From a virus: a stretch of 64,000 nucleotides of DNA. Position numbers and translations under genes: made by a program. The stretch is taken from positions 1-64,000 of IMG/VR virus record IMGVR_UViG_3300022746_000019. One strand, 5' to 3'. Shown here in pieces: positions 3,914 to 26,886 of this stretch. The stretch's first letter is position 1. Each line of letters begins with the position of its first letter. The notes beneath the pieces are model-generated. The model ran no database searches. It was not told where the DNA came from and saw only the letters and a list, made by a program, of their open reading frames with translations.

Positions 3914-3923
3914 AATTGGATGC

Positions 3924-4513: not shown

Positions 4514-4660
4514 GTCAATCCTTAGTCAAACGGACAAGTGGCATAATTAAATCACAATTTGTCCAACTTTTTAACTCAAACATATTAAACACATTGAGGG
4601 GTTACAAAGTTCTGTATCTCATGGGGTATGCTTATAGACCCTGACTGAGAGGAGCTACAC

Positions 4661-12610: not shown

Positions 12611-12637
12611 CCAACCGCGCTGAACACACCAGAGGTG

Positions 12638-12904
12638 TTACTTGTTACGCGAATCCATTGATTTGCCGATGGCCTTACCAACGCTGGAGCCAAGATTGCG
12701 GTTGTTGCCTTTTATCTTGGCAAAGGGAGAGGGGTCGCCCGGGCCGAAAGCCCTTGCACTCATCTTTCCGTTTTTATCGAACGACGCCCAGGCATCAACA
12801 TTGCCGCTGGTCTGTCGTTGAAGGTTTCCGCCAATCTTGTTAATCTTGGCTGCAGCCTTCTTTGCGCCTGCAGTGGGCTTACCGCCAACATTCTTCTTGG
12901 TCAT
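12638..12904 (-). CDS. basic hypothetical protein
   Basis: TAATG-coupled start MTKKNVGG. Confidence 0.6.
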   Translation of the reverse strand: MTKKNVGGKPTAGAKKAAAKINKIGGNLQRQTSGNVDAWASFDKNGKMSARAFGPGDPSPFAKIKGNNRNLGSSVGKAIGKSMDSRNK

Positions 12905-13134
12905 TACTCGTATACCTTTCCTGATCCGCCGCAGTTCTTGCAAGCGGGTCCGTAATAGCCTGATCCCATAATTGTTTTGGAATCCATGGCAGCTTTAGCG
13001 AAATGCTTTTCCGACTTCTTGTCGCCGGCAATAAATTCTTTGGGCTTGGTGGTTCCGGCACCTGAGCAGGTGGGGCAAGGTGCGTGAGTGCCGTCAGCAC
13101 TCCACAGGCCGTCAGCAAATTCTTTTGAACTCAT
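12904..13134 (-). CDS. DnaJ-type Zn-finger small protein
   Basis: CPTCSGAG and CKNCGGSG (CxxCxGxG x2). Confidence 0.7.
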   Translation of the reverse strand: MSSKEFADGLWSADGTHAPCPTCSGAGTTKPKEFIAGDKKSEKHFAKAAMDSKTIMGSGYYGPACKNCGGSGKVYE

Positions 13135-13523
13135 TTGTTGAACTGCCTTGCCTGTCCAAGGGCACGAGAAGCGTTCGAAGCAAGGTTAGGGTTGGACTTA
13201 CCCCACGACACCCACTGCTGGTGGGTAGCCCCAGAAGGGCTTCCACCGCCGGGACGCTGTTTCTGCCATTCGCGAACCGCGGCAGCTCGTTCTGGGCTGT
13301 TCCAAGCGGTCTGTTCCTTGGCGATCTCACCCGACCGCACAGCGTTCATAGTCGCACTAGCGCGAGTAGCTCGTCCGGGTGCAGCCTTGCCGTGTTCGCG
13401 AAACGACGGAGTACGTTCGCCAGCCCAGTGGTTTGAGTGCTGGGTCTCTACCCAACCTTCGACTTCCTCGCGTGACGGACGCTGCAGGGGTGGGTTCTTG
13501 GCTTTAGCCGACTTTTTTGCCAT
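13131..13523 (-). CDS. hypothetical protein
   Basis: ATGA overlap with the next gene. Confidence 0.6.
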   Translation of the reverse strand: MAKKSAKAKNPPLQRPSREEVEGWVETQHSNHWAGERTPSFREHGKAAPGRATRASATMNAVRSGEIAKEQTAWNSPERAAAVREWQKQRPGGGSPSGATHQQWVSWGKSNPNLASNASRALGQARQFNK

Positions 13524-13561
13524 GAGTCAATTATTCACGCAGCAGAGGAAATTGTCTGCGC

Positions 13562-13705
13562 TTACTTGGCTTTTGGCTTTGGCGAAGTCTTTTTAGCCGA
13601 GTTACTTTTCGCAACCGGAGGCTTGATCACAGGGCCGATGGACTTGTAGGTGAAAGACTGCTTACCGGGCTTGTAGGCACCGACGATGTCTTTATCATTT
13701 TTCAT
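13562..13705 (-). CDS. Lys-rich small protein (47 aa)
   Basis: hand translation MKNDKDIVG...; GAGGAG RBS, ATGA overlap. Confidence 0.55.
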   Translation of the reverse strand: MKNDKDIVGAYKPGKQSFTYKSIGPVIKPPVAKSNSAKKTSPKPKAK

Positions 13706-13923
13706 GCTGTCTCCTCAAGGTCTGGCAGGGTATTCATTTTGAAACGATCTTTTGATGCTAGAACCGGAATTCCGCAGTAGAAGCATGCCCGGTGTTCCAT
13801 GCTGGGGTAGCCGCACCACCCACACTTCACAAGACCGCTAGTCTTCGTGTCCATCTCCTCAGTAACAGGGAGCTCAATCAGCGATGTCGCAGTAGCGTCG
13901 TATTTTTTCTTAAACGGCCACAT
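13702..13923 (-). CDS. Zn-ribbon protein
   Basis: GGAGG RBS, MWPFKKK start, CGWC...CFYC. Confidence 0.6.
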   Translation of the reverse strand: MWPFKKKYDATATSLIELPVTEEMDTKTSGLVKCGWCGYPSMEHRACFYCGIPVLASKDRFKMNTLPDLEETA

Positions 13924-14030
13924 GGGCTGTGGTCCTCCTAGTGATTCGCGAATACCCAATTATAGCCTCGTTAGGCTACTGCCTGCACCTATTAACTAAC
14001 ACTGGCGCCTGTGCCCTGGACCCCATCTAT

Positions 14031-14046
14031 TCGAACAAACGTTCTA
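14031..14046. promoter_or_regulatory. LexA (SOS) box, Gram-positive/actinobacterial type
   Basis: TCGAAC-AAAC-GTTCTA, one mismatch to TCGAAC-N4-GTTCGA, in the divergent intergenic region. Confidence 0.55.
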
Positions 14047-14065
14047 AGGGTGGGGGGGTGTAGCC

Positions 14066-14104
14066 GTAACCGAATCGTTACCATGTCCGTTACCGAACCG
14101 TTAC
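14066..14104 (+). promoter_or_regulatory. two tandem GTWAC-N6-GTTAC boxes at the head of the cassette array
   Basis: GTAAC-cgaatc-GTTAC and GTTAC-cgaacc-GTTAC; the same box recurs before every cassette. Confidence 0.75.
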
Positions 14105-14211
14105 AAATCCAGGTGGCAGAGTGACAGCCCCGCATGGCATGGTTCTCCATGTGAAGGCAACCACGCCGACACCCCGCCCAATGGGGCGGTGACCTATCAA
14201 GGGGAGTAGCA

Positions 14212-14496
14212 ATGGCTACACGCACTATCAAGCGCGGCGATGTCCGCGCATTCGTCGAGGCGACCCGCGGTCGTTTCGTTGGAGTGACATTCCGCAAGCG
14301 CACCACGGGAGAAGTCGTCTCCATGGGATTCACGACTAATCGTCAGTCCTACCTAGTCGGCGGCGACCCCGCCTACAACGCCGCCGAACGCGGCTTGGTC
14401 GTGGTCGTCAAGCCCCGCAAGGGATTCCGCTCATTCGGTATCGAGAATGTCATCGAATTCCGTTTCGGTGGCGACACTATCGTGGTGGAGGACTAG
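14212..14496 (+). CDS. SH3/WYL-like beta-barrel protein (cassette 1)
   Basis: AGGGGAG RBS; VTFRKRTTGEV...GFRSFGIENV pattern. Confidence 0.7.
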   Translation: MATRTIKRGDVRAFVEATRGRFVGVTFRKRTTGEVVSMGFTTNRQSYLVGGDPAYNAAERGLVVVVKPRKGFRSFGIENVIEFRFGGDTIVVED

Positions 14497-14498
14497 TC

Positions 14499-14705
14499 AT
14501 GTCACACGCGACCACGAACCCCGCTAACTACAATTGCTCAACCGACTTTGAGGCGTTCGACCATAGCGACGAGTGCGACTTCGAAGGTCCGGTGGACGGA
14601 GTCGAGGTGGGCAACCTCACTCCCGACGGATACCGTTCCGCAGGCTACACGCAACACTTTGTCTGCCCAAAGTGCAACGCTGAAGTTGAGCGCGAGCGCT
14701 ACTAA
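14499..14705 (+). CDS. Zn-ribbon-like protein (cassette 1)
   Basis: GGAGG RBS; C..ECDF...CPKC. Confidence 0.7.
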   Translation: MSHATTNPANYNCSTDFEAFDHSDECDFEGPVDGVEVGNLTPDGYRSAGYTQHFVCPKCNAEVERERY

Positions 14706-14754
14706 CAACCACGGAGGGGGGCGCAAGCCCCCCTCCCCTACCGAAGGGGCAAGC

Positions 14755-14970
14755 ATGATTCCCAAGACTGAACAAGCGGTCTATGTAGTACTCCGACTCT
14801 CAAGCCTGTTCTTTGGCGGTTGGTGTTTCTACTTTGTAGTCCAGAGCCTGAACACCACCGGACCTACGCATGAGCGGGCGGTGGCATGGGCGGTCGCGAT
14901 GCTGTTCATCACGACAACCTACGAACTAATCCGGTTTGTCGCCCTGGTTCTGAACGGCAGACTCCGATAG
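14755..14970 (+). CDS. small membrane protein (cassette 1)
   Basis: GAAGGGG RBS; two hydrophobic helices. Confidence 0.65.
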   Translation: MIPKTEQAVYVVLRLSSLFFGGWCFYFVVQSLNTTGPTHERAVAWAVAMLFITTTYELIRFVALVLNGRLR

Positions 14971-15008
14971 CGAGGGGGCGGGGCGCGAGCCCCGCCTCAC
15001 CGCGGGAT

Positions 15009-15069
15009 TGTTTGTGTTGGCTCCCACCCTCCCAGAGCCTAACCTTAAAAGGGATAGTAGTAGAGAGAG
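15009..15069 (+). repeat. cassette-boundary element copy 1
   Basis: TGTTTGTGTT-GGCTC[CCACCCTCCCA]GAGCC-CCTTAAAAGG-GAGAGAG. Confidence 0.9.
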
Positions 15070-15193
15070 TCGTTACCAAATCGTTACAGATCACCCGTTA
15101 TCGAATCGTTACAAAACCAGGTGGCGCGGCGGCACGGAGTACGGCATAGTACTCCATGTGAACGGGAAATACCCGACACGGAAGGGGAACATC

Positions 15194-15424
15194 ATGTCTC
15201 GACCATTGAGTGCAATCGCTCAAGAAATTGAATCGGTATGGGCTAAGCCGTATTTCGGCGCGGTACCGTATCTGCGCGCTATGCGTTCACTGTCGTCAAT
15301 CACCGATAGTTTCTTCGATGACACCGCCGAAGGCGTCGTTATCTACTTTCTCGCTAACGCCGCCACATGGCGCGGCGAGGACGCCCGCCGCATCAAGGCA
15401 GAATTGCGGGGGATGTTGAAGTGA
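15194..15424 (+). CDS. conserved phage early protein (cassette 2)
   Basis: GAAGGGGAAC RBS; RPLS.IA.EI...AVPYL.AM..YFLANA.TWRG.DARRIKAEL, a recurring phage family of unknown function. Confidence 0.8.
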   Translation: MSRPLSAIAQEIESVWAKPYFGAVPYLRAMRSLSSITDSFFDDTAEGVVIYFLANAATWRGEDARRIKAELRGMLK

Positions 15425-15531
15425 CCGTTATCTTCTCCGCCCCCACATGCGCAGAGTGCAAGCGCGTGTTTGATCTGACCGATGAGACCGATTCGCACGA
15501 GTGGTATTTCGGACACGACTGCGAAGTGTGA
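15421..15531 (+). CDS. 36-aa Zn-binding protein (cassette 2)
   Basis: GTGA overlap; CAECKRVFDL...EWYFGHDCEV. Confidence 0.65.
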   Translation: MTVIFSAPTCAECKRVFDLTDETDSHEWYFGHDCEV

Positions 15532-15594
15532 GACCCCCGGCGGCCTGAGACCCCCGCTCAGGCCGCCGGCCCTGCGCCTGGCGGGATCCGGCGT

Positions 15595-15656
15595 TGTTTG
15601 TGTTGGACAGCCCTCCCACCCTGTCTCAACCCTAAAGGGATTAGGGAGGGAGAGAG
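15595..15656 (+). repeat. cassette-boundary element copy 2
   Basis: TGTTTGTGTT-GGACAG[CCCTCCCACC]CTGTCT-CCCTAAAGGG-GAGAGAG. Confidence 0.9.
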
Positions 15657-15759
15657 CTGCCGTTATCAAATCGTTATAAATCCAGGTGGCTGCTAGCCGT
15701 GGACTATGGCAGGGTTCTCCATGTGAGCGAGAAACTCTCGCCACGGAAGGGGAACTATC

Positions 15760-16176
15760 ATGGCCGCTGTGAAACTCAACGTTTCGTCAGCCATTGCGCT
15801 AATTGAAGCGCGCTTGTTGGAGGCAGACTTGCATGAGTCTGAAGAAGCCCGAATTAACGCGGAATACGAGAACGCTATCCGCGAATGGGACTTGCGTTGC
15901 GCCAGTCTGATTCGGAATGGCATCTCTGCCGAACTCGTCTCTGCCAAGACAACTATGTCTGGAACAGTTGTTGTCACGTTTGAGCTGGACGGGTACGCTG
16001 TCCCGCCCATGCCAATCAAGGCGGGGAACCCATACCGAAGCCTTGGCAAGGAGTACCGTCGCGGGCAGTACGTGGACGGGCGTGAAGAACTTCAGTTCGC
16101 TCTCAAACTGCTCCGCGCATCAGTTGGGGATACGGTAACCCTCTCCGCCCTCAACGGAGTCAAGAACTATCTCTGA
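15760..16176 (+). CDS. hypothetical protein (cassette 3)
   Basis: GAAGGGGAAC RBS; followed by a GAAA-loop hairpin. Confidence 0.8.
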   Translation: MAAVKLNVSSAIALIEARLLEADLHESEEARINAEYENAIREWDLRCASLIRNGISAELVSAKTTMSGTVVVTFELDGYAVPPMPIKAGNPYRSLGKEYRRGQYVDGREELQFALKLLRASVGDTVTLSALNGVKNYL

Positions 16177-16234
16177 GTAACTCCCTGGGGAGGCGCGAAA
16201 GCGCCTCCCTTCGGGGCGGACCGGCCGGCCGAAA

Positions 16235-16293
16235 TGTTTGTGTTGAGTCCCGCCCTCCCAGACTCTAACCCTAAAGGGATAGGAGGAGAGAGA
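16235..16293 (+). repeat. cassette-boundary element copy 3
   Basis: TGTTTGTGTT-GAGTC[CCGCCCTCCCA]GACTC-CCCTAAAGGG-GAGAGAG. Confidence 0.9.
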
Positions 16294-16462
16294 TCCGTTA
16301 CCAACTTGTTATAAATACCCGTTGCGCCTGGCCAGGGCGATCTGGTATGCCGCCTGCCTGAGCTGTCGTTATCAAACTGTAATAAATACTAGGTGCGGAT
16401 GTCATCCCTATGCCCTAAGTTTCTCCATGTGAGCAACTCCGCTCACCAAGAAAGGGGACGCC

Positions 16463-16789
16463 ATGAGCGTTTATGTGACAGGACCGCAGATGCTGGTTCA
16501 GTCCGAATTGGTCGCTTCGGGAGAAGCCGCCGTGGTATGCATGGAGGAACAGGCTCTTCGCGAGGTGGTTGACCTTCGCGATGAGTCCACATGGAGCCAA
16601 TACCGCGAGATTGTGTTTGTAATCCGCGATTCTGGCACCATTGAGGAATCGAAGGAAACGCTGCAAGAAGTCTTTGCGCGTTACCCTTACGCGCTGGACG
16701 CAATCGTCGTTCAGGGCAATTCGTGGCTCTCGGCAATTTGCGAGGACACCGATTGCTGCCCGCCCGAGGGTAAGCCCGTCCACAACTAA
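16463..16789 (+). CDS. hypothetical protein (cassette 4), DUF4192-like C-terminus
   Basis: AAAGGGGA RBS; ends WLSAICEDTDCCPPEG. Confidence 0.75.
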   Translation: MSVYVTGPQMLVQSELVASGEAAVVCMEEQALREVVDLRDESTWSQYREIVFVIRDSGTIEESKETLQEVFARYPYALDAIVVQGNSWLSAICEDTDCCPPEGKPVHN

Positions 16790-16796
16790 ACAGAGA

Positions 16797-16832
16797 AGCC
16801 GCCCGTCCCGCGAGGGGCGGGCGGTCTTTTTT
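16797..16832 (+). terminator. intrinsic terminator
   Basis: GCCGCCCGTCCC-GCGA-GGGGCGGGCGGT-CTTTTTT. Confidence 0.85.
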
Positions 16833-16907
16833 ATGCGCCCAAGCCCCCGGTGGCCTAGGGATCCGGATCTGCCCAGCTGCCTGGGCGGGCCGGCCAGCCA
16901 GCAGAAT

Positions 16908-16966
16908 TGTTTGTGTTGAGCACCCACCCTCCCAGTGCTCTTATATAGGGGTTGGGGGGAGAGAGA
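16908..16966 (+). repeat. cassette-boundary element copy 4
   Basis: TGTTTGTGTT-GAGCAC[CCACCCTCCCA]GTGCTC-...-GAGAGAG. Confidence 0.9.
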
Positions 16967-17151
16967 TCGATCATCGTTATCGAATTGTTATAAAAGAGAC
17001 TTGAACCGGCCAGGGCCGTGTGGTATGTCGCGTGCCTGAGCTTTCGTTACCAAACCGTTATAAAAACCCCATGCAAAGTGGCGGGTGAGTGTGGAATAGT
17101 TCACCTCGTGAGCAACACCGCTCACCTCAAACTCCGAAGGGGAGTGACGCC

Positions 17152-17550
17152 ATGAGTATGTATGGCGACCCGAATCAGGCGGGTACACCTGACAACACCG
17201 AGTGCTATCGGTGCGGCTTGCTCGATAAAGAGGTCGCGTACCTCAAGGGCACGATTCAGAATCTGCGTGCCACGCTCGCAGAGATTGGCGAAGCCCTTTG
17301 GGACCAAGCCAAAGAAGACATTGACAACGGCGAACCCGTTGCCACCTTCTCATTCGACGACATCCGCGAATTGGCGCAGCAGTGCGGCGTTTCGACTAAT
17401 GTCTCGTTCGTACTCACTGCCTCATTCGAAGCCCGCCTCACGGCTCCGTATGGCACCACGGCAGAAGAGGTCCTCAACGGTCTGAGCATCGACTCTGACT
17501 TTGACCTCGACGACTACGGCTTCGAGAGCGAAGAACTCGAGCCTCGCTAG
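17152..17550 (+). CDS. hypothetical protein (cassette 5), paralog of 18562-18960
   Basis: 132 aa; YGDPNQAG.P...CxxC, coiled coil, ASFEA.L.APYGT. Confidence 0.8.
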   Translation: MSMYGDPNQAGTPDNTECYRCGLLDKEVAYLKGTIQNLRATLAEIGEALWDQAKEDIDNGEPVATFSFDDIRELAQQCGVSTNVSFVLTASFEARLTAPYGTTAEEVLNGLSIDSDFDLDDYGFESEELEPR

Positions 17551-17587
17551 CCGACCGGAGGGGGGCGAAAGCCCCCCTCCCCCACAC

Positions 17588-17704
17588 TTCCCGCCCCGCC
17601 CTCTCTCCCCCGTAGGGCGGGGCGGGAAACACTCCAAGGGGATGCCGGAGTGACCTGGCCCACATAAGCCGCTTGGCGGGGTACTTCCCCTTCCCCCGCC
17701 AAGC
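17588..17704 (+). ncRNA. candidate C-rich-loop twin-hairpin RNA A
   Basis: 15-bp stem with loop CTCTCCCCCGT; 11-bp stem with loop TACTTCCCCTTC. Confidence 0.45.
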
Positions 17705-17736
17705 CCGCCTGGAGCTCCGGATCCGGCGGCCGGGAA

Positions 17737-17785
17737 TGTTTGTGTTGACCCACCCTCCTCATTGGGAATGTGTGTGGGAGAGAGA
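17737..17785 (+). repeat. cassette-boundary element copy 5 (degenerate)
   Basis: TGTTTGTGTTGA-CCCACCCTCCT-...-GAGAGAG. Confidence 0.85.
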
Positions 17786-17892
17786 TCGTCGATCACCGTT
17801 ACGCAACTGTAATAAATCCAGGTGGCGTGGGGCGGAGAGATAGGGCAGGATTCATCCCGTGAGCAACCGCTCACACTTAGAAGGGAAGCACC

Positions 17893-18099
17893 ATGAAAAT
17901 TTGGATTAACGTCCACAACGGGCAGACTACCTGCCCGGAACACGCAGGCAATGAGTTGTCATTCTCAATTGAGAGTGCGCCCACGGCACTGCAGCACGAG
18001 ACTTCGTTCGGTACATGGGTAGCAGCCACGCCCGAAGAGGTCCAAGACTTGGTACTCATCGCGGGCGACGCCTGCGAGACTTGCGCGTTCGGATTTTAG
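17893..18099 (+). CDS. small Cys/His protein (cassette 6)
   Basis: AGAAGGGA RBS; CPEHAG...CETC. Confidence 0.75.
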   Translation: MKIWINVHNGQTTCPEHAGNELSFSIESAPTALQHETSFGTWVAATPEEVQDLVLIAGDACETCAFGF

Positions 18100-18101
18100 C
18101 C

Positions 18102-18341
18102 ATGAAGTTTGTAGTCCGCGCCGACCAGAAGATTGAGTACAAAGAATTCGTCGTGGAGGCCGAAATCCTCTCTGCCGCCCAAGAGATTGTGTCAAATTTA
18201 ATTGACATGGACTTTGAGGTCCAGTTCTCCACCTGGACAGTGGGCATCGACGAAGCGCCGGAAACTAAGCCGTGTGATCGGTGCGGAGAGCCGGTCGATC
18301 TGACCGAGACTTACTGCGACGCGCAATGCGCTGAGGGGTAG
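18102..18341 (+). CDS. hypothetical protein with C-terminal Zn finger (cassette 6)
   Basis: CDRC...YCDAQC. Confidence 0.65.
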   Translation: MKFVVRADQKIEYKEFVVEAEILSAAQEIVSNLIDMDFEVQFSTWTVGIDEAPETKPCDRCGEPVDLTETYCDAQCAEG

Positions 18342-18380
18342 TGATACAGCCAGCCTGGTCCCCGAGAGGGGGCCGGGCCG

Positions 18381-18440
18381 GTTTGTGTTGGAGTCCCACC
18401 CACCCTGACTCTTACCTTTCAGGGATTGGTGGGAGAGAGA
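18381..18440 (+). repeat. cassette-boundary element copy 6
   Basis: GTTTGTGTT-GGAGTC[CCACCCACCCT]GACTCT-CCTTTCAGG-GAGAGAG. Confidence 0.9.
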
Positions 18441-18561
18441 TACGGCAGATCGCCCGTTATCGAACTGTAATAAATCCAGGTCGCAATTGTCGGTGGCATG
18501 CGGCATAGTTCACCTTGTGAGCAACAAGGCTCACACAAGACTCCGAAGGGGAGTGGTCGCC

Positions 18562-18960
18562 ATGATTTATGGCGAGAACCCGATTCAGGCGGGGAATCCT
18601 GAAGCCGCAGTATGCGCGGACTGCATGCAGAAAGACAGGCGGATTGCCTCGCTGGAGTCAACCGTCCAGCGCAAGGTAAACGACATGACTGCTGTCGGGA
18701 AGCGACTCTGGGCTGACACCCAGTCTTGCATCGACGAGGGTTACACCGAAGTGACCTTCACTGTCGAAGACATGCGGGCACTAGTGGATCTGCTGGGTAT
18801 CAGCACGGACATCCGCGTGCGCGTCACTGCCACCTTTGAGGCTATCCTAGATGTGCCCTACGGCACTGACCCGGACTACCTGATCGAGTCGTTCAGTGTC
18901 GACTGTGAGCATGACATGCTCCATTTCGGGTTCTCCGACGAAACTGTCGAACCCGAATAA
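18562..18960 (+). CDS. hypothetical protein (cassette 7), paralog of 17152-17550
   Basis: 132 aa; YGENPIQAGNP...CADC, ATFEA.LDVPYGT. Confidence 0.8.
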   Translation: MIYGENPIQAGNPEAAVCADCMQKDRRIASLESTVQRKVNDMTAVGKRLWADTQSCIDEGYTEVTFTVEDMRALVDLLGISTDIRVRVTATFEAILDVPYGTDPDYLIESFSVDCEHDMLHFGFSDETVEPE

Positions 18961-19029
18961 CTTCCCCCGGAAGTTCCGCACCTGGGCATGTGTTTAAACT
19001 GCCCACCACTACTAAGAAGGGATAAGACA

Positions 19030-19089
19030 ATGATTACTGATCTATACAACAGCTGGACTAACCGCGAGACATGGGCGGTTAATCTCTAG
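19030..19089 (+). pseudogene. truncated gene remnant
   Basis: strong AAGAAGGG RBS, then MITDLYNSWTNRETWAVNL-TAG; resembles the YNGWTNxETWxVxLW phage family, with TAG at the Trp position. Confidence 0.55.
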
Positions 19090-19093
19090 AACC

Positions 19094-19170
19094 TCCCGCC
19101 CAGTCTCTTCCCCTTCAGGCTGGGCGGGATCGGCCCGCCGACCTCAGCCACACTCCCCCGGTGGCTGGGG
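19094..19170 (+). ncRNA. candidate C-rich-loop twin-hairpin RNA B
   Basis: 13-bp stem (one G-U) with loop CTTCCCCTTC; CAGCCAC/GTGGCTG stem with loop ACTCCCCCG. Confidence 0.45.
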
Positions 19171-19218
19171 GACGGCACCCGGCTGGGCTGCTGTGGCAGC
19201 TCGGCCGGGCGGCCGCTT

Positions 19219-19278
19219 TGTTTGTGTCGGACGCCCACCCTCCCTCCGTCCTCTTATTAGGAATTATGGGAGAGAGAG
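19219..19278 (+). repeat. cassette-boundary element copy 7
   Basis: TGTTTGTGTC-GGACG[CCCACCCTCCCTC]CGTCC-...-GAGAGAG. Confidence 0.88.
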
Positions 19279-19449
19279 CCGTTACCTAATTGTTATGAAA
19301 GATCCTTGACCTTCCAGGCAGATCATGCTAGGGCCGGGGATTCTGACGCCGTTACCAAACTGTAATAAAAGTAGGTGGAGAGTGTCAGTGCCATGCCGTA
19401 AGTTTCTCCATGTACCGAAGCCCAGTAGGTACAAAGAAGGGAGTTCGCC

Positions 19450-19680
19450 ATGAGCGAGCAAGACTTTCTCGAATTCAGGTTCGAGGATAGCGAGTATGTA
19501 CGAACCGCTCGAGTTAGCCGCGATGTAATCCAAGGCCTGCTTATCAGCCGAATGAGCATGGACAGAATCATCAAGGCTACTGAATTGGTAGCCCGCACGG
19601 TTACCCCTGAGAATCAAGAAGAAGCGAACGCTGGCGGCTCGTGGGCGTTCATCACTGCGACACGGAAGGTGAGTGCCTGA
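19450..19680 (+). CDS. hypothetical protein (cassette 8)
   Basis: AGAAGGGAG RBS. Confidence 0.7.
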   Translation: MSEQDFLEFRFEDSEYVRTARVSRDVIQGLLISRMSMDRIIKATELVARTVTPENQEEANAGGSWAFITATRKVSA

Positions 19681-19681
19681 C

Positions 19682-20041
19682 ATGGGTAACCGTTCTGAGA
19701 TTATTGTCCAGAGCGATTCATTCGCTAGCAACCTCGTGTTCTACGGTCACTGGTCCGGGACGGACAACCTGCTCGCAGTAGCGAGAGTCCTCCAGCGTAC
19801 CGACCGCGTGGGCGACCCCTCGTACCTCGCGGCTCAGGTTTACTTCGAGTTCGCTGTGAACCTCGGACAGACTGACGGCAACCTGTCGTTCGGTATCCGC
19901 GCCTCCGATGGCACTGAGTGGGTGATGTGCGATGAACCGCCGGTCTACCTCAACGCCGACACGGGAGAGGTGGTCTACCAAGACATGACTCTGTCGAAGG
20001 ACACTCTCAAGGGTCTATTGTTAGACTCGCTCACCAAGTAA
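19682..20041 (+). CDS. conserved phage protein MGxR...YxHWxG family (cassette 8)
   Basis: MGNRSEI...FYGHWSG N-terminal pattern. Confidence 0.75.
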   Translation: MGNRSEIIVQSDSFASNLVFYGHWSGTDNLLAVARVLQRTDRVGDPSYLAAQVYFEFAVNLGQTDGNLSFGIRASDGTEWVMCDEPPVYLNADTGEVVYQDMTLSKDTLKGLLLDSLTK

Positions 20042-20095
20042 TCAACACGGGGAGGCTGGAAAGTCCAGCCTCCCCTACCTAAGAAGGGAAACGCA

Positions 20096-20575
20096 ATGCA
20101 TACTGCACACTTAATGCTAGTCCGAGCTGAGTCCCCAGAGGGAGCTCAGAACTATGTCGAATCGCGGCTCACTCACGACACCACTGTCGAACAGTGGTGG
20201 GACTGGTTCGCCATAGGCTCCGACGGTCGGTATTCACTCTCAAGCGCCATTGAGGGCTGGACCGGGGACGACTATGTCGTAGGGCTTGAAGCTACCCCTG
20301 GGCTGTTCCACCTAGCTGTGGACACTTTCTACGAATACCGCCGGCAAGCATTCGACCGGCACTCAGCTGAGCTGGAGAACAATGGCTGGATGTTCAGGCT
20401 CGACCAGGATGACATGATTACCTGGCGGCTCCGCCGGTTTGCCGACCTCTCCGCGTCTTACTATTGCGCGGAGAGCCATGTCTATGACCTGCATAATTTC
20501 TCAGCTAACTTGGATCTGTTCATTAAGGACACGGGTACTGACTGGTTCGCTGTCCTGGTGGATTTCCACTACTGA
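20096..20575 (+). CDS. hypothetical protein (cassette 8)
   Basis: AGAAGGGA RBS; WWDWFAIG...VLVDFHY family pattern. Confidence 0.75.
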   Translation: MHTAHLMLVRAESPEGAQNYVESRLTHDTTVEQWWDWFAIGSDGRYSLSSAIEGWTGDDYVVGLEATPGLFHLAVDTFYEYRRQAFDRHSAELENNGWMFRLDQDDMITWRLRRFADLSASYYCAESHVYDLHNFSANLDLFIKDTGTDWFAVLVDFHY

Positions 20576-20655
20576 CCAACCGGCAGGCGGGAGTTGCGCC
20601 CCGCCTGCCGCCTCCCCGCCCGCGATCGTGCCCGCCAGCGCGATCGCGGGCACTT

Positions 20656-20704
20656 TGTTTGTGTTGGCCCTCCCACCCCGCTTAGGGAGTTGTTGTGAGA
20701 GAGA
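20656..20704 (+). repeat. cassette-boundary element copy 8 (degenerate)
   Basis: TGTTTGTGTTGG-CCCTCCCACCCC-...-GAGAGAG. Confidence 0.85.
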
Positions 20705-20840
20705 TTTGATCTGTCCAGGGGTATTTGTTACATTTGGGTAACGGAATGATCGTTATCGAATCGTTATGGTTAATTCGTTGACACTGTCAGTGCGTGCTGT
20801 AATGTCTGCCATGCATTCAGTACCTAGAGAGAGAGATACC

Positions 20841-21533
20841 ATGAAGGCACTCAAGCGATCGACTGATTCTAAAGTGGCTAATAGCCTTACCCCCGGAGGG
20901 AAGGGCAGAATCGCCAATTCATTCGGGCTACCCTCGGGCAGGGCGTACTCATGCCCTGCAGCTACTAGTGTCTGCGAGTCAGTGTGCTACGCGGGCAAGC
21001 TGGAGAAAATTCGCCCGACCGTCCGTAATCTACTCATGCACAATTGGGATCTCCTCCGGGAGGCGGATCGACATACTATGTATGACCTACTAGTGAGCAT
21101 GCTTACGGAATTCGACGCCGAATGCGACAAATGGGACGCAGAGAAGCTGTTCCGCATTCATTGGGACGGAGACTTCTTCTCCCCGGAATATGTAGCCGCC
21201 TGGGCAGCTGCGATGGCGGAATTCCCGCAGATTCGATTCTGGGTATATACACGGGTAGACTACGCTGCTAGGATCCTCCGCCATACCCCTAATCTCTCCC
21301 TGTACTTCAGTGGAGATTCAGAGAATGCCGAAACGGCAGAGAGAATGTCCGCCTTGGGCGTCAATATCGCCATGCTAGGGAAGACTTTCGATCTGGCACG
21401 CGAGGCACTGTCTGTACGGGCGGCAAAGTGCCCCGAACAGCGCGGGCAGATTGCCCTTGCCGGTGCCTGCGTCGCATGCAAAATCTGCATCAAGGGAAAC
21501 ACAAGCATTACATTCTCGATTAGTAAGAAGTAG
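20841..21533 (+). CDS. mycobacteriophage gp88-like (radical-SAM-like) protein (cassette 9)
   Basis: FGLP...SCP..T.VC...CYA, FRIHWDGDF, FWVYTR, C-terminal C..CxxCxxC. Confidence 0.75.
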   Translation: MKALKRSTDSKVANSLTPGGKGRIANSFGLPSGRAYSCPAATSVCESVCYAGKLEKIRPTVRNLLMHNWDLLREADRHTMYDLLVSMLTEFDAECDKWDAEKLFRIHWDGDFFSPEYVAAWAAAMAEFPQIRFWVYTRVDYAARILRHTPNLSLYFSGDSENAETAERMSALGVNIAMLGKTFDLAREALSVRAAKCPEQRGQIALAGACVACKICIKGNTSITFSISKK

Positions 21534-21541
21534 GAGTAACC

Positions 21542-21757
21542 ATGAGAAGGCCCAAAGTCGCCGAAGTCAACAATTGGACTATCGTAGAGGATATGTCTAA
21601 TGAGATCGCCACTGTCTGGGAGGCGGACAATATCCCAGACTTCTTCAAACTCACCTCACCGGCTCATGCCACCAAGCTCTTCTACGGAGAAACAGCGTGG
21701 CAGGACGCCCAAAGGCTTTCCAGTGATCTATTCTTCAAGGTCAGGGTAGCCTCATGA
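21542..21757 (+). CDS. hypothetical protein (cassette 9)
   Basis: AGGAG RBS; FYGETAW. Confidence 0.7.
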   Translation: MRRPKVAEVNNWTIVEDMSNEIATVWEADNIPDFFKLTSPAHATKLFYGETAWQDAQRLSSDLFFKVRVAS

Positions 21758-21760
21758 TCT

Positions 21761-21836
21761 GAGCTCGGGGCTTTCCCCTTCTCCCCGAGCTCCGCTAGGC
21801 GGTTCAGCAGTACCTCTCTCACTGCTGGACCGCTTT
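21761..21836 (+). ncRNA. candidate C-rich-loop twin-hairpin RNA C
   Basis: 10-bp stem with loop CTTTCCCCTTCT; 13-bp stem (one G-U) with loop ACCTCTCTC, then TTT. Confidence 0.45.
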
Positions 21837-21864
21837 GGCGTGTCTGCGCCCGGGCAGCCTCGCA

Positions 21865-21917
21865 TGTTTGTGTTGGCCCACCCTCCCCGAATAGGGAGTA
21901 TGTATGTAGAGAGAGAG
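21865..21917 (+). repeat. cassette-boundary element copy 9 (degenerate)
   Basis: TGTTTGTGTTGG-CCCACCCTCCCC-...-GAGAGAGAG. Confidence 0.85.
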
Positions 21918-22331
21918 CAATCGTTACCAAACTGTGACCGGCCGGGGCTTGACACAGCTCCCCGGCCTGTGCTAGGCGGCAAAATGATCTAATTTGTCGA
22001 CAAAGCGCTTTGTGCATACAGCTATTTGTGCATAAAGAGAGAGAGAAGAGAAGAGAAGAGAGAGCCGGCTCGGCTACTGCCCCAGCAGATCGAGGCTTAA
22101 ACGCGGGCAACACCAGGCCATACGCCTATCCTCCCCGTTCCTATCAACTAGCCCCCTATGTCCTCTATCCCTATCTCTCTCTATCTATCTCTTAGGTACT
22201 AAGAAGGGAAATTCATAAAGGCGCCGATTTTTACGCGGGGGCGACCCTGTATGTATTCGTTATCAAACTGTTACCGAATAGGCGGGAGAATAATTTGCAT
22301 AATGTCAGTACGGGCGATAATAATTTGCCCC

Positions 22332-22970
22332 ATGAACATCACACCCATTCGAAATGCCATGATCACTTGCTCATGCTGCGGCGTCCGTCTTGAAACACTG
22401 GTCTGCCCAGACATCACCCTTTGCCACGAATGCATCATGGAGTGCATCGGTGACAACCTTACCCCTGCCGATGACCATAATCGTCAAGCGGCGGCTGAAC
22501 TCACCAAGGGACTAGTCCGGGTCGCTGAATGCGACTCCTTTGCCTGCGGTGGTATGGAGCAGCCTTTCTACTTCGATAATGTCGGCAGTGCTGTCTGTGC
22601 AGTCTGTGATGAATATGTGCGGATTAACACCTGCGACTGGGAAGAATGCTTCTCCAAGTGGGGTCAGGACGACGGCGACGGCAATATCTACACATGGGAA
22701 CTCATGGACTACTTCGCGTCTCAGGGCTGGCAGGCGTTTGATGGACAATGGGGTCTCCATAATACTGTCATTACATCACTGATTAACGCAGGCGACGAGA
22801 CTGTCTACTTAATCTGGTCAGGCGACGATTCTGTAAACGCCGAAGAATCGCCGCGGGACTTCCTGCCCGCCAGCATGGTCCGGGAGCTTGACAGCAAGTT
22901 CAAGCCCGACACCTATGTACCATTCCCCGTTTCATTCATGCCCACAATTCTGTTCACAGAAACCAACTAG
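22332..22970 (+). CDS. Cys-rich hypothetical protein
   Basis: follows a GTTAT-N6-GTTAC box and TTGCAT..TAATAA; possibly leaderless; start uncertain. Confidence 0.6.
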   Translation: MNITPIRNAMITCSCCGVRLETLVCPDITLCHECIMECIGDNLTPADDHNRQAAAELTKGLVRVAECDSFACGGMEQPFYFDNVGSAVCAVCDEYVRINTCDWEECFSKWGQDDGDGNIYTWELMDYFASQGWQAFDGQWGLHNTVITSLINAGDETVYLIWSGDDSVNAEESPRDFLPASMVRELDSKFKPDTYVPFPVSFMPTILFTETN

Positions 22971-22978
22971 AAGGAATC

Positions 22979-23260
22979 ATGAGTAAATCAATAGAACTCA
23001 CAGTAAACGCAATTTGCACCTACGAGGTCACCTACAGCGTCGTGCTTAACGAGGATGACGCGTTTCTCCAAGACTATTTGGAGAAGAACAACTTGGCATT
23101 CGACGAACTCGTGGACACCATGGGACTTGCCGAAGCCCAAGAACTCTGGGGAGAAGCGCGGCTTCACCCTGAAACCGGAGCCGATGTCTACGGCGATCTC
23201 GTCCCCGTGGGCGAAGAGGAAATCACGAGTTTCGAGACCGTTGTCACAGAGGAGGGGTAA
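22979..23260 (+). CDS. acidic hypothetical protein
   Basis: GAAGGA RBS. Confidence 0.7.
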   Translation: MSKSIELTVNAICTYEVTYSVVLNEDDAFLQDYLEKNNLAFDELVDTMGLAEAQELWGEARLHPETGADVYGDLVPVGEEEITSFETVVTEEG

Positions 23261-23339
23261 TGTCACTTGGAATGTTCATTGCCATAGTGCTTATCACTAA
23301 GTTTCTCTGGCTCGTATTCGACGAATATTGGAGGAAGTA

Positions 23340-23522
23340 ATGACTAACAAAGAACTGGCTGATCAAATCCGGGAGCGTTTCATGCCCGCGGCGTTTCGCT
23401 GCGGGTGTGGCGGAATGGACGCAAGTTGCAAGATGATTCTAGAAGAGAACATCGGCGGTGCGTGGCAGGTAAAAGATGTCGTTGATCGAGTTGCCGCATT
23501 TATCGAGCGGGAGGGTAAATGA
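23340..23522 (+). CDS. hypothetical protein
   Basis: GGAGG RBS before MTNKEL. Confidence 0.6.
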   Translation: MTNKELADQIRERFMPAAFRCGCGGMDASCKMILEENIGGAWQVKDVVDRVAAFIEREGK

Positions 23523-23648
23523 CCAAGACCTCCCGATTCGGCTGGTGCGGAGCCGGTCAGCACGATCTGTGTAAGCAGAGCTTCACAGACTGGAACAATT
23601 CCCCTAACCAATGCGATTGCCCGTGCCACACGGGTAAGGAGAAATAAT

Positions 23649-23852
23649 ATGGCTAACAAGCACGTGACTAACCCATGCGGAAACAGCGGTATGGCGGTAC
23701 GAGAGGAAGATCTGGAAAAAGCAGCTCTCAACCATAAGGGAATCCTTAAGGGACATTGCTGGCTGTGCAACCAGAGCAAAGTAACTATTAACAAAAAAAC
23801 CGGTCTGTACCGCAAGCACCCAACCCCCAGCACAAACAACGAGCGGTCATGA
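23649..23852 (+). CDS. hypothetical protein
   Basis: AAGGAG RBS. Confidence 0.6.
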   Translation: MANKHVTNPCGNSGMAVREEDLEKAALNHKGILKGHCWLCNQSKVTINKKTGLYRKHPTPSTNNERS

Positions 23853-24040
23853 ACCGAGCAAGCCGATATTGGTACAGGCTTAAAGATGCAGAATCTGCCA
23901 TCCAGCGGGTGCGTGACCTGCATAAGGAAGTTAATGGCCCGTTTGATGATTTCATGTGTGACCATTGCTATGTAGACGAGAATCGTTACTATGGCTGGCC
24001 ATGCCCGACTCTCCTCGCATTGGACGGTGAGCGGGGATGA
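23849..24040 (+). CDS. RVRxLH/CxxC/WPCxT Zn-binding family protein
   Basis: AIQRVRDLH...CDHC...WPCPTLLALDGE. Confidence 0.7.
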   Translation: MNRASRYWYRLKDAESAIQRVRDLHKEVNGPFDDFMCDHCYVDENRYYGWPCPTLLALDGERG

Positions 24041-24252
24041 ACGGCAGTTTTATGGAATGGCTATGCAAACATGATGTAGTAATTATGAAAGATAATTACG
24101 ATAGAACTAGGACATATCATGTTTGTCCAAAGTGTTTGGATTGTGGTAGCGCTTTTGCTGAAAGAATTAGCAAAGCATTAAACGGGGAAAACGTACCAAT
24201 GAACGACGACAGTGTGACAGTTTCCCAAGTTATGGACGGTGAGCAGGGATGA
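24037..24252 (+). CDS. hypothetical protein
   Basis: ATGA-coupled. Confidence 0.6.
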   Translation: MNGSFMEWLCKHDVVIMKDNYDRTRTYHVCPKCLDCGSAFAERISKALNGENVPMNDDSVTVSQVMDGEQG

Positions 24253-24479
24253 AAATTCCAACCAACATCAAAATTGAAGACATGACCCAAAAGGATCTTG
24301 ACGCAGTGGTTGCCGCCTACAACCGGCTAGACGCTAGTTTTACATTTGGACATAAATTTTGCTTTAGCATAATTCAGAAAGGGCTGGGAGTGGATAGCAC
24401 CGACATCCGCTTCCACGACAGAATGTTGGCGCATGAAATCATGCGGGCGTTTGACCCTATCATTGAGGATGAACAATAG
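24249..24479 (+). CDS. hypothetical protein
   Basis: ATGA-coupled. Confidence 0.6.
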   Translation: MKIPTNIKIEDMTQKDLDAVVAAYNRLDASFTFGHKFCFSIIQKGLGVDSTDIRFHDRMLAHEIMRAFDPIIEDEQ

Positions 24480-24820
24480 TGAAAATTGAAGAAAATGTAG
24501 TCTTTGACAAAGACGGTAACTCAATCACGCTTGAGGAATGGGTGACGCTCTTCCGGTATGAGAACTACTTTAAGCTCGTTAATTATGGCGAGGACGGCTA
24601 CAAGGTTGTCACCAAGTGGACCGGCGTAGATACCGCTCCCCTTGAAAAGTCTGGCAGCAACTCATTCGCCTACAGTCGCTGGACACCCAACGAAACCCCG
24701 CTGATCAACATCTCATTCGTGTTCAACCAAGACGATGTGCTGCTGGAGTACGACAAGTACCCGGACTCAGCATCGGCTCGTGCGGGTCACGAACGACTCT
24801 GCAATATCTATTGCAAATGA
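24479..24820 (+). CDS. hypothetical protein
   Basis: coupled ORF ending at the terminator. Confidence 0.65.
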   Translation: MKIEENVVFDKDGNSITLEEWVTLFRYENYFKLVNYGEDGYKVVTKWTGVDTAPLEKSGSNSFAYSRWTPNETPLINISFVFNQDDVLLEYDKYPDSASARAGHERLCNIYCK

Positions 24821-24853
24821 AAAACGCCCCCCGTATTTGGGGGGCGTTTCTTT
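24820..24853. terminator. bidirectional terminator
   Basis: AAAAACGCCCCCC-GTATTT-GGGGGGCGTTTCTTT between convergent blocks. Confidence 0.85.
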
Positions 24854-26886
24854 CATCCTGTTATCAGTTTCACTTCGCAGGCATCCGTGGTGCAATATGC
24901 CTCTCCGATAGCATCCGCTGCCATTCCGGCGTAAACCCCAGACAGATCGATTGGGAAGAGCTTCATCTCCCCCTCGTCTACATATTCTTGTTCAGTAATA
25001 CGCGTGTAAGGCATTTGAGGATAGACATGATTACCAGACGGCAAGAAACTCACAGTCTTGAGCTGCCCGTCGTACATATGGAGCACAGTTCCAATGTGAT
25101 CCTTCTCTGTCTCTGGGTCAAAGGTGATAGTCACAGAGACGGAGTTGTCCGACCAGTACCGCTGTGCGGTGGACGCGAGAGCCATCTTCTCAAAGACAGT
25201 TACATCGCGCTCAGCTCGCTTGGCTTCGGACTTAATTGGGAAGAACACGACACTAGTTCCCTTTGGGTCTTCGCTGGCCGGCTCCACGCGATACTGAGCC
25301 ATCTTGAACAATGGCAGCATCGGGTCATTGTTGGAGAATCGAATAGCACGCAGGAAGTACTTTCCGCCCGGAGTCCAGTGGACGCCCGGACTCTCACCAG
25401 CGAGGATCGAGACAGTTCCCGACGGCTTGATAGTGGTGGTCTTAATAGACTCGCGCACACCCAGCCATTCGGAATACTTCTTGTCGTAGTGCTGAACAGT
25501 CGCGTAACCCTCGTCCATCCAAAGGCGGAGTTCGGGCATACCACGGTTGTCAGCGAAGTTAGCGACGCCAGACATCGAGGTTCCGATGCGGCGGTTGCGC
25601 TGCATGATGGCATTGGTCTCTTCCCAGTGGGTCGGGAGAAGCGTCACAGTCTTGGCGTAGAGGTAGGCGAACTTCAATGTGCGGTTGTAATCCTCAAGGG
25701 AGTCATGGCGGTTGAGGTAAGTCTCAACCAAGGTGCACATCTCGTACGACTCAAGGCTCTGCTCAGCGCATGGGTTGTAGCCAGCTGCTCGCCAGTCCTT
25801 GTTGTTAGGCTGATCGATAAGGCGTCCGTACTTGCGAGTGACATCCATCCAGATAACGCCCGGTTCTCCGTTGAGTGCGATGCCATCCACAATTCCCGAG
25901 AGGTCGTCACCTACAGAGACGGACACAGAGTTGTTGGACATCCAGCCCCAGCCTGGAGCGGCGGGGTCGTAGGAGTTGCGTTCTGGGTAAACCTCTGGGT
26001 TCTTGAGGTTCAGGAAGTCTGGATCATCGATGGAGCCAATGAGAAGTTCTGCGGAGCGGCGGACATTGCCCGATACGACGCAGACGCCAATGAGGTTGCC
26101 AATGTCAGCAATGTCCTTGCGGGTGACCTGCTCACCGGCGCGTCCCTTGAACAAGTTAGCAATGTGATTGTGCAAACGCATAAGTGGCTCGGGGCCAGCT
26201 GCGGTGCCGCCGAAAGTGCGGATGGGTTCTCCCGCCAAACGAATCTGGGAGTAGTCAAACTCCACGCATGGCTGATCCGACTTCAAGTAGGAGTTGATTA
26301 CCTCAACCACGGACTCTACCCAGCCTTCGCGAGTGTCCGGAATGACCGCGGTCTTGCACTCGTCCTTGGGCTGGTAGATGGTGAATCCCTTGTCCGCACC
26401 CTTCTGGTCGAACCCGACACCGACGCCCAGCATGGACGCTTCCATGAGGAACGCGAACGGAGCGGCGGGGTTGTTCTTCGTCATGCTCTCGGTGCTGACG
26501 AACGCACAGTTCTGCAGGGCGGCACTGTTCTTCTGCTCATTGACGAGCGGGGTACCCATGACCCACAGCCCACGACCGGGCGGAGTCCACTTGAGGTTGA
26601 ACAGTCGATCGAAGGCTTCTTTGGCCGACGCAGCGGCGCGGCTGTCATTCCAGGGAAGTCGGTTGGACTTGCAGTGATCCTTCTGCAGGCTGTACATACC
26701 GTTGATGACGCGCTCGCAAACATCTACCCAAGTCTCCTTGGTGCCGTCCTCTTTCAAACGACTGTAGGTGCGGAGAAATGTAATCTCACCAACGGAATTA
26801 CCGGCGGCATCTCGATACCCCCAAGGAACGGGTTTGCCTCTGTAACCAGCGACAAAGTCTTCAGCAAGACGGAACGAAAGTGCCAT
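24853..26886 (-). CDS. nrdJ: class II (B12-dependent, monomeric RTPR-type) ribonucleotide reductase
   Basis: PPGRGLW, LQNCAF, GNVRRSA, YNPCAEQ, TIKPSGT, C-terminal CTTDACE. Confidence 0.93.
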   Translation of the reverse strand: MALSFRLAEDFVAGYRGKPVPWGYRDAAGNSVGEITFLRTYSRLKEDGTKETWVDVCERVINGMYSLQKDHCKSNRLPWNDSRAAASAKEAFDRLFNLKWTPPGRGLWVMGTPLVNEQKNSAALQNCAFVSTESMTKNNPAAPFAFLMEASMLGVGVGFDQKGADKGFTIYQPKDECKTAVIPDTREGWVESVVEVINSYLKSDQPCVEFDYSQIRLAGEPIRTFGGTAAGPEPLMRLHNHIANLFKGRAGEQVTRKDIADIGNLIGVCVVSGNVRRSAELLIGSIDDPDFLNLKNPEVYPERNSYDPAAPGWGWMSNNSVSVSVGDDLSGIVDGIALNGEPGVIWMDVTRKYGRLIDQPNNKDWRAAGYNPCAEQSLESYEMCTLVETYLNRHDSLEDYNRTLKFAYLYAKTVTLLPTHWEETNAIMQRNRRIGTSMSGVANFADNRGMPELRLWMDEGYATVQHYDKKYSEWLGVRESIKTTTIKPSGTVSILAGESPGVHWTPGGKYFLRAIRFSNNDPMLPLFKMAQYRVEPASEDPKGTSVVFFPIKSEAKRAERDVTVFEKMALASTAQRYWSDNSVSVTITFDPETEKDHIGTVLHMYDGQLKTVSFLPSGNHVYPQMPYTRITEQEYVDEGEMKLFPIDLSGVYAGMAADAIGEAYCTTDACEVKLITG

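Follow-up and report, generated by a model that had tools for sequence, protein, structure and literature searches.

The first 64 kb of a 90,007-bp virus record in IMG/VR (IMGVR_UViG_3300022746_000019; this 64-kb stretch is the window referred to below) contain, at about 14.0–22.3 kb on the + strand, small ORFan genes arranged as repeated cassettes. The 3' tails of several cassettes carry hairpins with C-rich loops that are complementary to the G-rich ribosome-binding sites (RBSs) of the same array. These loops may act as anti-Shine-Dalgarno elements that damp early translation, either in cis or in trans. We favor this reading, while holding it with slightly less than even confidence, because structure and loop have been conserved together on the sense strand, because the hairpins sit just past stop codons, and because the loops fit the RBSs of their own locus.

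The original prediction had described three twin-hairpin elements in the tails of cassettes 5, 7 and 9, and all six hairpins, partners included, are present with their loops where it had placed them on the + strand. The first element follows the gene at 17152–17550. Its first C-loop hairpin (17588–17628), the partner, has a 15-bp stem and the loop CTCTCCCCCGT (17603–17613), and the second (17671–17704) presents the loop TACTTCCCCTTC (17682–17693) on an 11-bp stem. This latter loop reads T-ACTTCCCC-TTC, that is, it includes an 8-mer, ACTTCCCC, that is found family-wide. Between the two lies a small hairpin (17630–17652, stem CACTCC/GGAGTG) that displays AAGGGGA in its loop (17636–17642). Since this sequence is complementary to the adjoining C-rich loop, it may be an internal mimic or a kissing partner. 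A small GC hairpin followed by the U-rich tract TGTTTGTGTTGA (17722–17748) forms a terminator-like cassette end.

In the second element, a hairpin at 19094–19129 (13-bp stem including one G-U pair, loop CTTCCCCTTC at 19107–19116) begins 5 nucleotides (nt) past the stop of a 19-codon open reading frame (ORF, 19030–19089). Its partner at 19142–19170 has a 10-bp stem, also with one G-U pair, and the loop ACTCCCCCG (19152–19160). The terminator-like end of this cassette (19178–19230) consists of a 14-bp hairpin with the loop TGTG, a small GC hairpin (19202–19215) and a U-rich tract. The third element starts only 4 nt past the stop of the ORF at 21542–21757, with a hairpin at 21761–21792 (10-bp stem, loop CTTTCCCCTTCT at 21771–21782); the partner at 21797–21835 has a 15-bp stem including two G-U pairs and the loop ACCTCTCTC (21812–21820). 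We found two additional C-loop hairpins. One, on the + strand at 15537–15569 (13-bp stem, loop ACCCCCG), begins 6 nt past the stop codon at 15529–15531. The other (196–224, loop TCCCCTTTC) lies on the - strand and is sense to the local minus-strand genes.

The placement in 3' tails was likewise as predicted: the C-loop hairpins are on the sense strand, start 4–7 nt past stops and precede small GC hairpins with the U-rich tract TTTGTTTGTG. From this position, the tails would be 3' untranslated regions (UTRs). The small GC hairpins with TTTGTTTGTG are included in the terminator scan, and none of the six predicted hairpins is among its 23 sites. No T run follows them, so the arrangement that marks an intrinsic terminator, a GC-rich stem directly followed by a U tract, is absent from all six. 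The promoter scan listed no candidate site immediately 5' of the hairpins. The other strong hairpins of the array have loops of 3–8 bases (four bases in 7 of 11) and none of these is C-rich; the C-rich loops of 7–12 nt therefore are a distinct class within the array.

The three TTCCCCTTC-bearing loops had been claimed to share a 9-mer complementary to two RBSs, and this complementarity is exact. The RBS GAAGGGGAA of ATG 15194 (15181–15189, +) and that of ATG 15760 (15746–15754, +) are perfect 9-nt complements of TTCCCCTTC. The window holds five matches to TTCCCCTTC: three on the + strand, all in these loops, and two on the - strand, which are the GAAGGGGAA copies at 15181 and 15746. Only 0.67 copies would be expected, five were reached in none of 100 shuffles, and the whole 90,007-bp record contains no copy beyond these five. 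The sequence GAAGGGGA is indeed present 5' of the ATGs at 17152 and 18562. The RBS of the former, GAAGGGGAGT (17136–17145, +), can form 8 nt plus a G-U pair with the TTCCCCTTC loops and 7 nt with ACTCCCCCG; the same GAAGGGGAGT precedes ATG 18562 in the paralogous cassette (18545–18554, +). On the + strand of the 90-kb record, all four sites that match the shared GAAGGGGA(A) over at least 8 nt are RBSs (15181, 15746, 17136 and 18545). Two more 8-nt sites owe their match solely to the additional 5' letters of the first loop and are not RBSs.

The remaining loops also find partners among start regions. The loop ACTCCCCCG complements GGGGAGT in the RBSs of 14212, 17152 and 18562. For ACCTCTCTC, the best RBS partner is the GAGAGAGAGA tract 5' of ATG 20841 in the same cassette, where a GA-repeat RBS occupies 20826–20836 (+). 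The longest same-strand complement of the minus-strand loop TCCCCTTTC is an 8-nt match, which is the RBS at 46422. Overall, four of the six loops (17682, 19107, 19152 and 21812) have their best or tied-best partner in the RBS of their own cassette; the own-cassette RBS ranks third for the loop at 17603 and is a poor partner for the loop at 21771. A rule of strict own-cassette pairing was rejected: the partner lies in the preceding cassette in one related locus (L093), and for the first loop of cassette 9, which is of the TTCCCCTTC type, the best partners are in cassettes 1 and 2. We also discarded the start at 22251 as a target of CCCCCG loops, as this start is doubtful and promoter-like boxes lie inside that ORF.

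These partner sites belong to a separate class of RBSs. Shine-Dalgarno words enriched across the genome resemble AAGGAG, which most genes use, and AAGGGG forms a second class. Starts preceded by AAGGGG or GAAGGGA were flagged ten times on the + strand within 14199–20083, and elsewhere only once on each strand; the lone + strand case outside the array belongs to a doubtful 32-codon ORF at 36211. A further copy precedes the 19-codon ORF at 19030. This phage thus has two RBS classes, AAGGGG/GAAGGGA in the early array (14199–20096, +) and AAGGAG elsewhere. Situated after the gene at 18562–18960 and before the second twin element, the 19-codon ORF (19030–19089, +) has the strong RBS CTAAGAAGGGA and may be what is left of a truncated gene.

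We then looked at relatives. Searches with the array proteins encoded at 20841–21533 and 17152–17550 found none, so orthologous tails could not be compared, and relatives were reached through the cassette module instead (first 10, then 79 loci on about 55 viral contigs with a G+C content of 42–56%). At least ten of these contigs contain GC-rich hairpins that carry ACTTCCCC in the loop, with CTTCCC, ACTTCCCTC and ACCTTCCC as variants, and the stems are of eight or more different kinds. The hairpins begin 3–15 nt past the stops of unrelated proteins. A U tract comes directly after several of them, and in these cases the hairpin is the terminator. The original prediction had made its case depend on loop conservation in relatives, and the core CUUCCC(C) does recur on different stems in many contigs.

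Motifs within loops, defined as sequence enclosed by a stem of at least 6 bp, were counted in 1.1 Mb of related contigs. ACTTCCCC was located in a loop in 14 of its 32 occurrences, CTTCCCC in 20 of 118 and CCCCTTC in 20 of 131. Permutations of the same composition are far rarer in loops (CTCCTCC 0 of 118, CCTCCCT 0 of 60), and the loop signal is therefore one of sequence, not of composition. Six orthologous copies provide the clearest case. In their 10-bp stem, four pairs have changed on both sides while 100% of the cells remain paired, and seven of the eight loop positions (ACTTCCC) are invariant, the eighth being C or T. The co-variation score of these six copies was not matched by any of 500 shuffles.

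It is conceivable that the elements are ordinary terminator or stabilizer hairpins and that their C-rich loops have no function but are shared by descent, gene conversion between cassettes or mutational bias. The hairpins are GC-rich and close behind stops, the relatives' copies are followed by U tracts, and cassettes 5 and 7 are paralogous. Moreover, four-base loops (GCAA, GCGA, GAAA, GAGA) hold the same place in other cassettes and in relatives. Identical loops on unrelated stems are, however, the reverse of what descent without selection would leave. The rarity of permuted motifs in loops argues in the same direction, as does the fact that the six window hairpins lack a U tract and are outside the terminator list. 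We consider this explanation improbable.

The conserved structure appears to be that of an RNA. Minimum-energy folds leave the loops unpaired, also when whole tails are folded, and the z-scores of four + strand segments against shuffles were -5.99, -2.24, -5.92 and -4.97. The claim that G-U pairs favor the + strand could be upheld in part. The six stems hold four G-U pairs and no A-C pair, and two of the four segments fold better as + strand (19086–19218, -90.4 vs -79.7 kcal/mol; 21755–21864, -56.9 vs -51.8 kcal/mol), but both halves of the first element fold slightly worse (-60.6 vs -63.4 and -46.8 vs -47.8 kcal/mol). Over all 34 hairpin rows from the window and its relatives, G-U and A-C pairs number 29 and 15. 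A hand count in the 27 rows with stems of at least 10 gave 23 and 7.

A role at the level of DNA would be an alternative to an RNA signal. The inverted repeats could extrude as cruciforms or fold in single-stranded DNA, or a protein could recognize GAAGGGGAA/TTCCCCTTC in both orientations at cassette ends. The repeats are perfect over 10–15 bp, copies of one 9-mer in opposite orientations lie no more than 7 kb apart, and the neighboring cassette module is found within long palindromes in relatives. Against such a role, G-U pairs exceed A-C pairs, and the elements are tied to stops and, in relatives, to U tracts. In addition, every C-rich loop lies on the sense strand of the local genes. Among the explanations considered here we regard this one as the least probable.

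A second group of loops, CTA[A/C/T]CCCTTCCC, ends a conserved two-gene operon in the relatives. In locus L088 this operon spans 1283–4656, with two large genes of about 485 and 634 codons, and homologues are present in L091, L094, L099, L100 and L101. Judging from sequence motifs, one of the proteins resembles an AAA+ ATPase and the other a von Willebrand-type protein. The hairpin at the operon end of L101 has the loop CACCCTTC instead. We also tried a three-state co-variation for the hairpin behind the large ATPase-like and the second large protein, and abandoned it as it fits only two of the three loop variants.

Several relatives offer matched variants of loop and RBS. For example, G002 combines the loop AUAUCCCUUCC with AAGGGAUAU directly 5' of the AUG of the first gene in the same operon, 682 nt upstream. 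In L088 the loop CUAACCCUUCCC goes with GAAGGGUUA at the gene that opens the operon, 3.4 kb upstream. The loops ACCUUCCC in L093 and CUAUCCCUUCCC in L094 go with GGGAAGGU and GAAGGGA, respectively, and ACUUCCCC goes with GGGGAAG in both L076 and L089. In a permutation test, each loop was scored against our calls of start regions up to 4 kb upstream in all loci. One row was dropped beforehand: the 12-nt own match at L086 +1885 was an artefact in which the loop pairs with adjoining sequence in a larger hairpin. The longest complement averaged 6.36 nt in the own locus and 5.63 ± 0.15 nt after permutation (n=28; none of 20,000 as high), and the own-locus energy gave p=0.0001 in the same test, a value to be read as optimistic. 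With array hairpins alone (n=21), none of 20,000 permutations reached the observed length and the optimistic p was 0.0003; with this genome left out (n=16), the figures were again none of 20,000 and 0.0007. Loops are matched to RBSs within their locus more closely than to those in the other loci.

This result also bears on Rho. C-rich, G-free loops past stops could be rut-like loading sites where Rho ends early transcripts, and the position after the stop codon would fit. A C/G ratio above 1 is the threshold for rut sites. The four tails have ratios of 1.20–1.37, their best 78-nt windows reach 1.26–2.00, and YC dinucleotides are numerous. Rho needs a composition and not an exact motif, whereas here an exact 9-mer recurs in three loops and permutations are disfavored. 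Highly stable stems take up most of each tail, and co-variation between loop and RBS would be unexpected. Rho loading thus seems very unlikely.

Several observations weigh against pairing with RBSs as the function of the loops. The rows of the permutation test are not independent (several hairpins per locus, related contigs) and the start calls are home-made, so its p-values are optimistic. In most contigs ACUUCCCC matches the local RBSs over only 6 nt (GGGGAA), in L103 over 4 nt, and the conserved AC of this loop is not explained by RBS pairing. The variable loop position in L091 and L100 is opposite a mismatch, and the matching RBS of L093, being in the preceding cassette, is separated from the loop by a terminator. 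The 9-mer TTCCCCTTC occurs on neither strand of five fully read relatives, and the other loci have no convincing loop copy of it. We saw the twin layout in this genome alone; relatives usually have one hairpin, which is the terminator itself. In G004, at least ten starts have AAGGGGG-type RBSs and the record has a single C-rich-loop hairpin, far from the cassette array; this RBS class therefore exists without the loops.

The energetics add to these doubts. A loop of 10–12 nt cannot hold a full 9-bp helix without strain. Several RBSs are partly paired in local folds, at an opening cost of 1.2–9.2 kcal/mol that depends on arbitrary fold windows. When loops with shuffled letters were paired with the 17 start regions of the array, only about 2 kcal/mol was lost. 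In 300 shuffles per loop, the share with a minimum energy as good was 0.06–0.43 for seven loops and 0.06–0.12 for the TTCCCCTTC loops. Shuffling thus costs little, and much of the complementarity is no more than would be expected between any C/U loop and any G/A RBS.

The loops could instead be a sequence-specific site for a protein or another factor on 3' hairpins, with RBS complementarity as a by-product. Candidates would be RNA-binding proteins of the phage or host that protect or process 3' ends or tune termination or antitermination. Lambda N with boxB is one model; the protein-free put RNA of HK022, with its two stem-loops, is another. This explanation would account for the conservation of ACUUCCCC letter for letter, including the AC, on unrelated stems after unrelated genes, and it agrees with the relatives' hairpin being the terminator itself and with the nearly equal pairing of shuffled loops. 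It would not predict the matched variants of loop and RBS, nor a fit to the own locus above that to other loci. No candidate protein emerged, and a Pfam search with ten array proteins assigned none of the ten to a family. A scan of 12000–26000 against Rfam (cmscan, both strands, E≤1) gave no match to put or boxB, and none to 6C. It returned five weak matches far below the gathering score (ctRNA_p42d, sot2652, mir-4436, ar7 and RsmY). We rate a protein site as unlikely, yet as the strongest of the rivals, followed by plain terminators or stabilizers, Rho loading and a role of the DNA.

Anti-Shine-Dalgarno pairing, the reading that we prefer, would work as follows. Each 3'-tail hairpin of the early transcripts would offer a G-free, C/U-rich loop as a seed for the G-rich AAGGGG(A)/GAAGGGA RBSs that mark the early array. 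Pairing would block binding of the 30S subunit and may form a double-stranded substrate for an RNase, so that early translation would be damped or shut off. In cis, the 3' tail would reach back to the 5' RBS of the same mRNA, as in icaR; in trans, whole mRNAs or processed 3' fragments would act, as with LhrC, RsaE and 6C. This mechanism presupposes transcription of the region as described here, pairing between loops and RBSs in the cell and a resulting drop in translation, all three of which we infer from the sequence. In the original prediction, putative 70–120 nt small RNAs derived from 3' UTRs would shut off early genes or host mRNAs with G-rich Shine-Dalgarno sequences. The position in 3' tails, the array RBSs as best complements, the conserved core and the own-locus fit lend it partial support. 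The near-equal pairing of shuffled loops, a twin layout and 9-mer specific to this genome and the lack of 6C membership weaken it.

A more general proposal, which we put forward tentatively and consider rather doubtful, is that a family of lake actinophages builds self-limiting early messages, in which the loop of the 3'-end hairpin, often that of the terminator, is antisense to the early class of RBSs. Each completed transcript would thereby provide the very RNA with which early RBSs are closed, whether in cis or in trans. The present genome would have elaborated this into two-loop modules, with loops matched to individual cassettes (GAAGGGGAGU, GAGAGAG).

The record, from an uncultured lake phage, points to a complete genome. 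Its first 126 bases (G000 1–126) recur exactly at 89875–90000, which makes it likely that the genome is complete and has either a terminal repeat or a circular overlap; IMG/VR, however, classifies it as linear. Large genes match the families of a baseplate wedge protein, the large terminase and DNA polymerase I. A WhiB-like gene on the - strand (39627–39851; PF02467, 55.3 bits, cut-off 23.6) suggests that the host is probably an actinobacterium. The deposited DNA polymerases nearest to that of the phage are from Streptomyces phages, with about 39% identity. A near-identity search of deposited phages found no match to 15000–22000. Two freshwater metagenome DNA runs contain the stretch (shares 0.34 and 0.07), and there was no RNA run among the sequencing runs found to contain it.

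The cassettes are delimited by recurring features. They end in a GC-rich hairpin followed by the tract TGTTTGTGTTG, of which nine exact or one-mismatch copies are on the + strand within 15009–21876. The small hairpins directly 5' of TGTTTGTGTTG appear in the terminator scan. Two copies on the - strand (60808 and 23827) are inside coding sequence and were taken as chance. Directly 3' of TGTTTGTGTTG, at cassette starts (15017–15041, 15604–15630, 16243–16266, 16916–16941 and others), we noticed a short hairpin. Its 5–6 bp stem varies (GGCTC/GAGCC, GACAG/CTGTC, GAGTC/GACTC, GAGCAC/GTGCTC), while its loop is C-rich and near CCACCCTCCCA; by eye, a GGGA...GAGAGAG tract follows. The start of cassette 9 (20778–20841, +) is unlike the others and, by eye, consists of TTGACA, 16 nt, TAATGT, a GA-repeat RBS and the ATG at 20841. 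This TTGACA/TAATGT pair is not in the list of the promoter scan. A longer ORF call from 20766 is probably too long, as it would start inside repeated GTTAY boxes. In relatives, TGTTTGTGTTGG forms the outer arms of palindromes of about 90 nt (G002 14669–14760; L093, reverse strand, 12317–12405), and in five contigs the module is also present in inverted orientation, adjoining the ACTTCCCC hairpin. The cassette module therefore is not simply a terminator tail.

Should the loops act on RBSs, phages would time early translation by placing a few bases in a terminator loop or a 3'-tail loop, a very cheap layer that is invisible to gene annotation. This would also explain why a separate class of G-rich RBSs marks the early array, and would extend the C-rich-loop principle of icaR, LhrC, RsaE, 6C and the cuckoo RNAs from small RNAs of bacteria to phage mRNA ends. 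With motif, variants and partner RBSs now defined, and with natural compensatory pairs present in the relatives, the idea is directly testable. Should the loops bind a protein instead, the conserved ACUUCCCC loop would be a handle for finding it.

Phage T4 shuts off its early genes through RegB, which cuts GGAG in early RBSs, and RegA, a translational repressor. The device proposed here would likewise be aimed at the phage's own early-gene RBSs. In T4 the agents are proteins, whereas here an RNA loop would act; early shut-off by RNA only would thus do what RegB and RegA do in T4. A limited literature search found no description of anti-Shine-Dalgarno loops on phage terminators or 3' mRNA tails.

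The closest parallels come from bacteria. The 3' UTR of icaR in Staphylococcus aureus contains UCCCCUG, which pairs with the Shine-Dalgarno region of its own mRNA (PMC3868564). The pairing is described there as blocking initiation and yielding a substrate for RNase III, possibly in cis or in trans (PMC3868564). Both systems set a C-rich anti-Shine-Dalgarno motif in the 3' UTR against a G-rich RBS (UAGGGGG in icaR, GAAGGGGA in the phage), and a tail motif complementary to the own Shine-Dalgarno sequence is present here as well, with 3' UTR status assigned from position only. In the phage, the motif is displayed in the loops of very stable hairpins (in relatives, the terminator loop), recurs in several cassettes and is family-wide. 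The two have no sequence relation, and the pairing in the phage is a predicted one.

RsaE/RoxS and RNAIII are reportedly small RNAs of Bacillota with UCCC motifs. LhrC of Listeria carries redundant CU-rich loop motifs, one of them in the terminator loop, which pair with Shine-Dalgarno regions independently of Hfq, and it is present in several copies per genome (PMC4132741). As in these RNAs, UUCCCC or CUCCCC is unpaired in five of the six phage loops, the exception being ACCTCTCTC. LhrC, RsaE and RNAIII are free-standing bacterial small RNA genes, whereas the phage loops are on the tails of coding cassettes and have no match to them in Rfam.

In Actinobacteria, 6C RNA pairs the C-rich loops of its hairpins with G-rich RBSs such as AGGGGGG and needs no chaperone to do so (PMC6486639). 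The phage elements resemble 6C (RF01066) in having at least two hairpins with unpaired C-rich loops, and the host phylum is probably the same. 6C has a gene of its own and the phage elements are 3' tails, their loops are CUUCCCCUUC, CUCCCCC or CUCUCUC, and stems and length differ as well. With no match to the covariance model at E≤1, the phage elements are not members of the 6C family.

The cuckoo RNAs of Alphaproteobacteria (CcsR, ar14) consist of 2–4 adjacent hairpins, each with the loop CCUCCUCCC on variable stems (PMC4615179). The phage architecture resembles this in its adjacent hairpins and freely changing stems around an anti-Shine-Dalgarno-like loop, but the two loops of a phage pair are unlike each other, and the shared loop recurs between elements and not within one. 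The phage loops are not CCUCCUCCC; CTCCTCC was found in loops in none of 118 occurrences, there is no ar14 match, and the host group differs. The anti-Shine-Dalgarno tail loops of this phage thus parallel icaR, LhrC, 6C and the cuckoo RNAs without belonging to any of these families, and they are a variant of a known principle.

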